A stretch of DNA of 60,243 bases, filler included, from Squatina squatina (Eukaryota), in NCBI GenBank assembly GCA_031763465.1. It is 3 parts of 3 records of this genome, joined end to end, with 100 filler letters (N's around TTAATTAATTAA, not from the genome) between each part and the next. Parts side by side here need not be neighbours in the genome. Positions count along the whole stretch, not along the records: positions 26,214 to 40,634 come from JARFOE010000233.1; 2 more parts are not named here. One strand, written 5' to 3'. The notes under the pieces were generated by a model that worked only from the letters and a program-made list of their open reading frames with translations, did not search any database and had not been told where the DNA came from. A program made the position numbers and the translations under genes. Positions within the stretch are counted from its first letter, which is position 1, and each line of letters starts with the position of its first letter. Positions 32,491 through 32,827 of the stretch are shown piece by piece.

Positions 32491-32827
32491 GCCAGATGTG
32501 ATTGGCTCGCCTCTCCCTCTCCCTCCCACTGGGTTTGTGCCGCCAGATGTGATTGGCTAACAACTCCCGCCCACTGGATTTGTACCTCCAGTTGCGATTG
32601 GCTTATAGCTTCCTCTCCCGCCCACTGGGTTTGTACTGCCGGGCATGATTGGCTCAGAGCTCCCGCTCACACCCACTGGATTTGTATCGCTGGATATGAT
32701 TGATTCACAGCTCCCGCTCCCGCCCACTGGGTTTGTACCACCGAATATGATTGGCTCATAACTCTCACTCCCGCCCACTGGATTTATACCGTCGGATATG
32801 ATTGGCTGATAGCTTCCTCTCCCACCC
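32491..32827 (-). promoter_or_regulatory. tandem array of 7 ~51-bp units carrying CCAAT and GC boxes upstream of GAS1
   Basis: ATTGG at 32501, 32552, 32597, 32648, (32699 ATTGA), 32750 and 32801; most units are followed by CTCCCGCCCACTGG. Confidence 0.8.

Follow-up and report, generated by a model that had tools for sequence, protein, structure and literature searches.

A Tandem Array of CCAAT- and GC-Box Units Upstream of GAS1 in Squatina squatina, Read as a Predicted NF-Y/Sp Promoter Minisatellite

Known multi-CCAAT promoters and NF-Y minisatellites

Promoters with several NF-Y and Sp sites, and minisatellites that carry NF-Y sites, are both already known. In human promoters bound by NF-Y and c-Fos, the CCAAT-CCAAT distances have their main peak at 31 bp and secondary ones near 41, 52 and 63 bp, while the contacts of NF-Y span about -7 to +17 around the CCAAT box (PMC4982600). 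The NF-Y/Sp1 promoters of this kind are proximal and combine co-oriented boxes near whole helical turns with GC boxes. Five CCAAT boxes are present in the mouse Sp2 promoter, and in the composite of PBX/PREP, NF-Y and Sp2 the DECA motif stands 11 bp from CCAAT (10.64898/2026.02.16.706105). The four-CCAAT array of Mrps12/Sarsm is a comparable multi-box promoter, in which, in reporter assays, middle-box loss lowers the output modestly, while loss of all four boxes reduces it to ca 15% (PMC1802594). Typically, an NF-Y site is found 40-100 bp upstream of the start site (PMC3730095). As far as the available parts of these sources go, multi-CCAAT promoters are mostly 31-bp pairs or irregular clusters, and no repeat unit is described for them.

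Other described systems are built from repeats. The CBF/NF-Y minisatellite of human ABO consists of four 43-bp units, each with a CCAAT motif and with reported NF-Y binding; they precede the start codon by about 3.7-3.9 kb, and alleles differ in them (PMC7187371). The U3 region of ERV-9/LTR12 holds 14 repeats bearing CCAAT and GATA motifs, with CCAAT spacings of 24 and 41 bp, inside a dispersed retroviral LTR (PMC3730095). Promoter tandem repeats have also been linked to expression divergence in apes (PMC4617956). For the same gene as treated below, Sp1 was found by ChIP at the mouse Gas1 promoter, a CCAAT word and a GC-box word occur in the printed promoter primers, and the region from -195 to -550 is reported as conserved from chicken to human, with data not shown; the available text mentions no tandem array (PMC3153484).

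Here, we examine seven head-to-tail units upstream of GAS1 in Squatina squatina, in a window of 60,243 nucleotides, by which we mean the whole stretch of DNA that was analysed. The array is similar to the known NF-Y/Sp1 promoters in its co-oriented boxes, five of whose six intervals are near whole turns, its GC boxes and its proximal position, and differs from them in consisting of seven recognisable copies of one module. Like the ABO minisatellite, it is a tandem repeat upstream of a gene with a CCAAT motif in the unit, but its distance to the ATG is only 0.35-0.7 kb, and it is an old array whose units have diverged (64-82% identity) and also hold a GC box. With ERV-9/LTR12 it shares the head-to-tail arrangement of NF-Y modules, whereas its unit was found once in the genome and no element ends were seen. 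It is built like the ABO minisatellite and, by analogy, would work like the known NF-Y/Sp promoters. In open-access full text without supplements, we found no description of this array, and none of a cartilaginous fish with CCAAT promoters built from repeats.

We will argue, with slightly better than even confidence, that the array is the proximal GAS1 promoter, with NF-Y and Sp/KLF predicted to bind at several units. Its sequence also makes it likely that this is a promoter minisatellite which arose by local duplication of an ordinary NF-Y/Sp module. The locus would then be a clear natural example, at a developmental gene, of duplication giving rise to a multi-CCAAT promoter, and its units are distinct enough to be deleted one by one.

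The array and the GAS1 gene

The features on which the discussion is based are the following, with the units numbered from the most distal (1) to the most proximal (7).

31298..32125, minus strand: GAS1 coding sequence, a single 275-aa open frame that continues through the 62-N assembly gap at 31451-31512
32400..32460, minus strand: predicted transcription start zone, placed by CCAAT geometry only (PMC3730095)
32468..32827, minus strand: tandem array of 7 x 51 bp with a partial distal unit tail (TRF and unit alignment)
Within 32468..32827, minus strand: unit 5, of 45 bp, with a 6-bp deletion in its tail (unit alignment)
32800..32807, minus strand: CCAAT box of unit 1, most distal, AGCCAATC
32749..32756, minus strand: CCAAT box of unit 2
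32698..32705, minus strand: degenerate box of unit 3, AATCAATC
32647..32654, minus strand: CCAAT box of unit 4
32596..32603, minus strand: CCAAT box of unit 5
32551..32558, minus strand: CCAAT box of unit 6
32500..32507, minus strand: CCAAT box of unit 7, most proximal
32768..32776, minus strand: GC box of unit 1, GGGCGGGAG
32717..32725, minus strand: GC box of unit 2
32615..32623, minus strand: GC box of unit 4
32564..32572, minus strand: GC box of unit 5
32468..32476, minus strand: GC box of unit 7, GGGCGGGG, beyond the coordinates of the first-pass annotation

The minus-strand frame that starts at 32125 matches the Pfam GDNF/GAS1 family (E 7e-11) and the solved GAS1 chain 7rhq_G (E 4e-71). 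Its identity is 92% to stingray, 90% to bamboo shark, 87% to skate and 84% to elephant shark; among the named matches, no bony vertebrate exceeds 62%. The family, the solved chain and the homologues thus confirm that the array lies upstream of GAS1, as first annotated. The last few codons before the 62-N gap (gap and codons together at 31451-31530 in the window) differ from those of all close homologs, which may be an error at the assembly edge. Over 28.6-34.6 kb the ratio of observed to expected CpG is 0.66-1.09, compared to 0.39 for the whole window; such a CpG-rich zone is expected for an unmethylated developmental-gene region. Inside the array the ratio is 0.52-0.53, below the flanks at 0.75-0.89.

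The array is held by the part of the window at 26214-40634, and its place in the genome is G000:C233:3150297-3150657. At 32470-32827, TRF reports a period of 51 bp with 7.1 copies and 75% matches, corresponding to seven head-to-tail units on the minus strand, between 345 and 702 bp upstream of where GAS1 has its ATG. The CCAAT anchors, which all share one orientation, are located at 32500, 32551, 32596, 32647, 32698, 32749 and 32800, i.e. with spacings of 51, 45, 51, 51, 51 and 51 bp, and the distance from the ATG to the first C of each of them is 380-680 bp. TRF and the anchors hence bear out the seven units and the spacings that the first-pass annotation had given. Its count of six NF-Y words and four perfect GC boxes is reproduced as well: AGCCAATC is found on the gene strand in six of the seven units, unit 3 having AATCAATC instead, and the perfect GC box GGGCGGGAG in four of seven (units 1, 2, 4 and 5), beginning in unit 1 29 bp past the first C of CCAAT. 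To these can be added a fifth GC box, GGGCGGGG, in unit 7 (32469-32476), just outside the start first assigned to the array, so that GGGCGG is counted in five of the seven units overall. Unit 6 is without a GC box, and unit 3 is without both motifs.

The pairwise identity among the units is 64-82%. A matrix built from them scores its own units at 53-65 bits, while the best other position in the window reaches -1.6, and the similarity within the array is not a matter of chance. Since the longest exact repeat within the array is 22 bp, a collapse of copies or a copy-number error in the assembly is unlikely. The identity of units is flat with lag (0.75-0.79) and 15 trees tie for best parsimony, which makes the order of the duplications unreadable. 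A higher-order unit of 102 bp (TRF score of 362 vs 324) was considered and discarded, as it rests mainly on one alternating column.

A number of other words were looked for in the units. The plus strand of the degenerate unit 3 box, at 32697-32704, reads TGATTGAT, which we take to be a PBX-HOX-like word. The ER-stress element (CCAAT-N9-CCACG) is absent from the array units, and by eye the DECA-like word TGACAG is in none of the seven. Another option considered was that the block TACAAAYCCAG is a ZNF143 site. This was rejected, the likeness being one base short, and the block not being kept in the proximal unit of the related organisms A and D introduced below.

In the mechanism that we favour, one ordinary module of CCAAT box and GC box would have been duplicated locally and head-to-tail to give what is now an old minisatellite, several copies of which would bind NF-Y and Sp/KLF additively and redundantly. 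With NF-Y covering -7 to +17, a gap of ca 26 bp would be left that holds the GC box and TACAAAYCCAG, so that one NF-Y and one Sp could sit on each unit without overlapping. One or two of the units nearest the gene would fix the start site at a point 40-100 bp further downstream, at about 32400-32460, and the CCAAT box of unit 7 is, by analogy, likely the core-promoter NF-Y site. The distal units would maintain an open region and make up for individual sites that are lost; unit 3, without both motifs, is a case in point. Through unequal exchange or conversion, the number of units and the sequence of their spacers would drift, with loose selection acting on the motifs and their spacing and not on the exact count.

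We also tried to anchor the start site by words from the mouse primers. This was abandoned, because three of the five words matched with 0.7-3 expected by chance; the shark-mouse matches, of words of 9-10 letters, are at the chance level.

Seven upstream ATGs are present on the minus strand between the array and the GAS1 start (32169-32196 and 32411-32456). The one at 32192 opens an out-of-frame frame of 224 codons that overlaps GAS1, and the one at 32188 is in frame, with a stop after 10 codons. If transcribed, these ATGs could dampen translation. No long open frames were found near the array besides GAS1 and those that overlap it, and no GLI or RBPJ consensus words in 32126-34000. Upstream of the array there are words that we presume to be an RFX-like half site (32847), an E2F-like word (32936, inside the 24-bp block at 32919-32942) and a perfect CRE palindrome (33586-33593).

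Age of the array and conservation of its motifs

The comparison set consisted of four sequencing runs from three related organisms, called A, B and D. Two further features are needed here.

32919..32942, no strand assigned: 24-bp block kept in organism D (1 difference), inside a piece aligned in organism A
33064..33379, no strand assigned: conserved AT-rich non-coding block upstream of the array, 316 bp, with 44 (D) and 46 (A) differences

The array region is spanned by one contig of organism D, of 8065 bp. It aligns up to 32478, after which 21 letters replace 117, and before 32919 there are 230 letters in place of 181. Between these, the stretch 32596-32737 aligns without gaps and differs at 28 of its 142 bp (80%); the register of this alignment need not be orthologous, and 40 of the 115 differences of this organism are listed. 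The net change across the region is -47 bp, while six 51-bp units would give -45. An array of six units in organism D would fit these numbers, with 230 of its letters being outside the alignment. The pieces 32738-32918 and 32943-33063 give no alignment at 80% in organism D, nor does the GC-rich stretch 32947-33063 in A or D.

For organism A, contigs from two studies cover the proximal unit as far as 32528 and, beyond a gap, the distal edge of the array, beginning at 32800. The uncovered middle would fit near-identical units, and we have not counted it as evidence. For organism B (X15) the coverage is 31900-32291 only, and in a metagenome scan 101 candidate stretches gave a single locus (L029), whose match has only 6 bases on its upstream side. 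The 21-bp spacer of the proximal unit differs at 3 positions from that of unit 6 in the same array, compared to 7 from the proximal spacer of organism A and 9 from that of organism D, while A and D differ at 3 from each other. This one spacer suggests some homogenisation within a lineage.

On the basis of these alignments, the array and its 51-bp period also occur in distant relatives, probably with another number of units. The proposal in the first-pass annotation of an old, local tandem amplification of an NF-Y and Sp module is thus upheld, the array being held by related elasmobranchs and the unit not being found elsewhere. In organisms A and D, the AT-rich block at 33064-33379 is ca 86% kept, more than the GC-rich DNA that separates it from the array; it may be an enhancer or belong to a divergent transcript.

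Within the array, the mismatches to the majority amount to 3/63 in the CCAAT 9-mer, 5/63 in the GC box and 6/77 in columns 21-31. The 11-bp spacer block TACAAAYCCAG is in other words as invariant as the motifs, and the only loose spacer columns are 10-20 (18/77) and 41-51 (21/71). The original statement that the spacers have diverged is correct for these two blocks, but not for columns 21-31, in units that are still 64-82% alike. By parsimony, 8 of 42 changes occur in the motif columns, which make up 18 of the 51. This excess of conservation has a p of 0.017 in a binomial test and of 0.007 by column permutation, and it holds without the CpG columns (p 0.019); shifted placements of the motifs are as low in 2 of 51 cases, the true placement included.

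The expected difference between motif columns and spacers is therefore real, but it does not discriminate. Among other arrays without evident promoter context, p<0.05 is reached by 8 of 23 with CCAAT, several of which come from two families and are not independent and many of which fill small contigs, and by 3 of 14 with the control word CCATT; 2 of 25 CCAAT arrays and 1 of 15 control arrays had been dropped, as they gave no usable repeat call. The GAS1 array has 1/35 mismatches in CCAAT vs 48/295 elsewhere (p 0.02), and an equal excess is seen for L091 (1/35 vs 49/296) and the control L105 (1/58 vs 49/483). Because the excess is matched in CCAAT and control arrays, it does not prove selection. 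The test moreover lends weak support because it is biased by how the arrays are found, these being picked for a repeated word.

It is also important to consider how common such arrays are. Minisatellites of 17, 25-26 and 50-53 bp abound in the genome. For three CCAATSR words at 50-53 bp there are 943 matches, compared to 1340 for the control CCATTSR, the CCAAT and CCATT words partly overlapping as reverse complements. A seeming enrichment over a reversed-word control (943 vs 211) was consequently discarded in favour of this better matched word. The CCAAT-GC-CCAAT pattern gives 15 matches vs 16 for its control, while three NF-Y-grade boxes at 50-53 bp give 186, the 100 listed of which fall on 37 contigs. 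In a genome so rich in minisatellites, with CCAAT triplets no commoner than CCATT ones, a CCAAT array can arise without function.

This is the basis of an alternative in which only the proximal module matters and minisatellite growth in open, GC-rich promoter DNA has left the distal copies behind as a near-neutral by-product. The match counts just given, with no enrichment over the control word and 186 triplets of NF-Y grade, agree with it, and so do the equal motif excess in arrays without evident promoter (L091 and the control L105), the loss of both motifs in unit 3 and the seemingly different unit number in organism D. It is harder to reconcile with the gap-free 51-bp register in organism D, whose neighbouring unique DNA fails to align at 80%, with the retention of two separate motifs at a unit divergence of 22-25%, and with the fact that 51 bp falls on a known NF-Y spacing peak. 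We consider this alternative unlikely, if well within reason.

Turning to the spacing, the 51 bp found in five of the six intervals fits the known secondary peak of CCAAT-CCAAT distances. The array had been described as phased at about five helical turns; the period does lie on that peak, but the 45-bp unit breaks strict phasing. With 10.2 bp per turn, the 45-bp step rotates the two proximal boxes by about 148 degrees relative to the other five; with 10.5 bp per turn, all boxes follow a spiral and have no common face. A constant period is, furthermore, what any tandem duplication gives.

These results make it quite improbable that the array is a cooperative NF-Y/Sp1 lattice in precise phase, with selection acting on its copy number so as to set how much GAS1, a Hedgehog co-receptor, is made. 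Such a lattice would be consistent with the spacing of exactly 51 bp in five of six intervals, with a register that organism D holds over two intervals, and with motif columns that change less than spacer columns. It is, on the other hand, at odds with the broken phase and with the arrays of 50, 73 and 98-99 bp period at PPTC7 and other gene starts, and the copy-number effect of the ABO NF-Y minisatellite is itself disputed (PMC7187371).

Repeat families and other gene starts in the genome

A DNA search of the genome, in which very common words are skipped, gives one match for the array and one for the 1375 bp around it. An exact 15-mer from the unit has 14 matches in the genome, 5 of them in the array and 9 elsewhere, compared to 5 for a control. 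The outside matches score at most 10 bits vs 53-65 for true units, and the rest of the unit is absent at all nine. When compared with eight CCAAT repeat families, the unit shows no significant similarity after allowing for eight tests: the best family has a shuffle p of 0.025, or 0.065 with the GC box held, and the 53-bp family one of 0.96. For the 2.5 kb upstream of the GAS1 ATG, there is no match longer than 29 bp among 102 genome loci. A genome-wide dispersal of the unit, which had been raised as an objection from the start, is hence not seen, the array and its flanks being matched once and the 15-mers occurring without the rest of the unit.

It is accordingly very improbable that the array is a co-opted internal transposon repeat or LTR U3 repeat, similar to the CCAAT repeats of LTR12/ERV-9, in view of the lack of similarity to any of the eight unit families, of upstream matches beyond 29 bp and of long open frames nearby other than GAS1 and its overlaps, even though very common words are passed over in the searches, no class of NF-Y sites in human cells is larger than the LTRs (PMC3730095), and such a route seems present in this genome, in a dispersed family of 53 bp with CCAAT and GC box (L090-L095) and a related array on C149.

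A separate dispersed minisatellite family, of 51 bp and with CCAAT (L035, L078, L085, L098 and L099), has GGGTGG at the offset of the GAS1 unit; its similarity to that unit is not significant.

Among the loci inspected, four gene-start-like ones besides GAS1 carry CCAAT arrays; the architecture is not special to GAS1. At L026:500-690 (G000:C1001849), 50-bp units that are 98% alike and cut by the contig end are found upstream of the first exon of PPTC7, an exon with 74-84% identity to sharks and 71-75% to rays. Each of these units has CCAAT and the word GAGTGACAG, presumably similar to the PBX/PREP DECA site. The minus strand of L065:7840-8480 (G000:C149:about 2640840-2641480) has about nine units of 50-53 bp with CCAAT and GC box, ending ca 200 bp before the ATG of a signal-peptide-like exon for which no protein relatives were found. 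The unit resembles, by eye, that of the dispersed 53-bp family, and the upstream flank matches two copies of it at 71%, which suggests that the promoter on C149 was borrowed from a mobile element. At L038:627-1276, a double unit of 98-99 bp with two CCAAT boxes and a CRE-like word is present in at least 5.9 copies and runs into an ATG and a splice-donor word. L042:1-360, finally, has four units of 73 bp, in which both strands carry CCAAT-like words, followed by CpG-rich DNA with a splice-donor word.

Duplicated NF-Y modules are thus associated with at least five gene starts, namely GAS1, PPTC7 and loci on C149, C434358 and C980160, one of the five arrays apparently coming from a repeat family that is dispersed in the genome. 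Of greater interest is whether NF-Y promoters built from repeats are both general and selected in sharks and rays, in which case they would provide a test of whether site number tunes expression. As a tentative and rather unlikely generalization, cartilaginous fishes may routinely build promoters by amplification of NF-Y modules, sometimes borrowed from transposons, with selection keeping the motifs as copies turn over; GAS1 would then be an old example, in which a copy number that varies between lineages sets the level of the co-receptor.

The dispersed 53-bp family itself (L079, L082 and L090-L095) has 4-20 internal units with CCAAT and often a GC box. Several of its copies have both flanks in common, left as well as right, and terminate with the word GGCAAC, and from these shared ends it is likely a non-autonomous DNA transposon.
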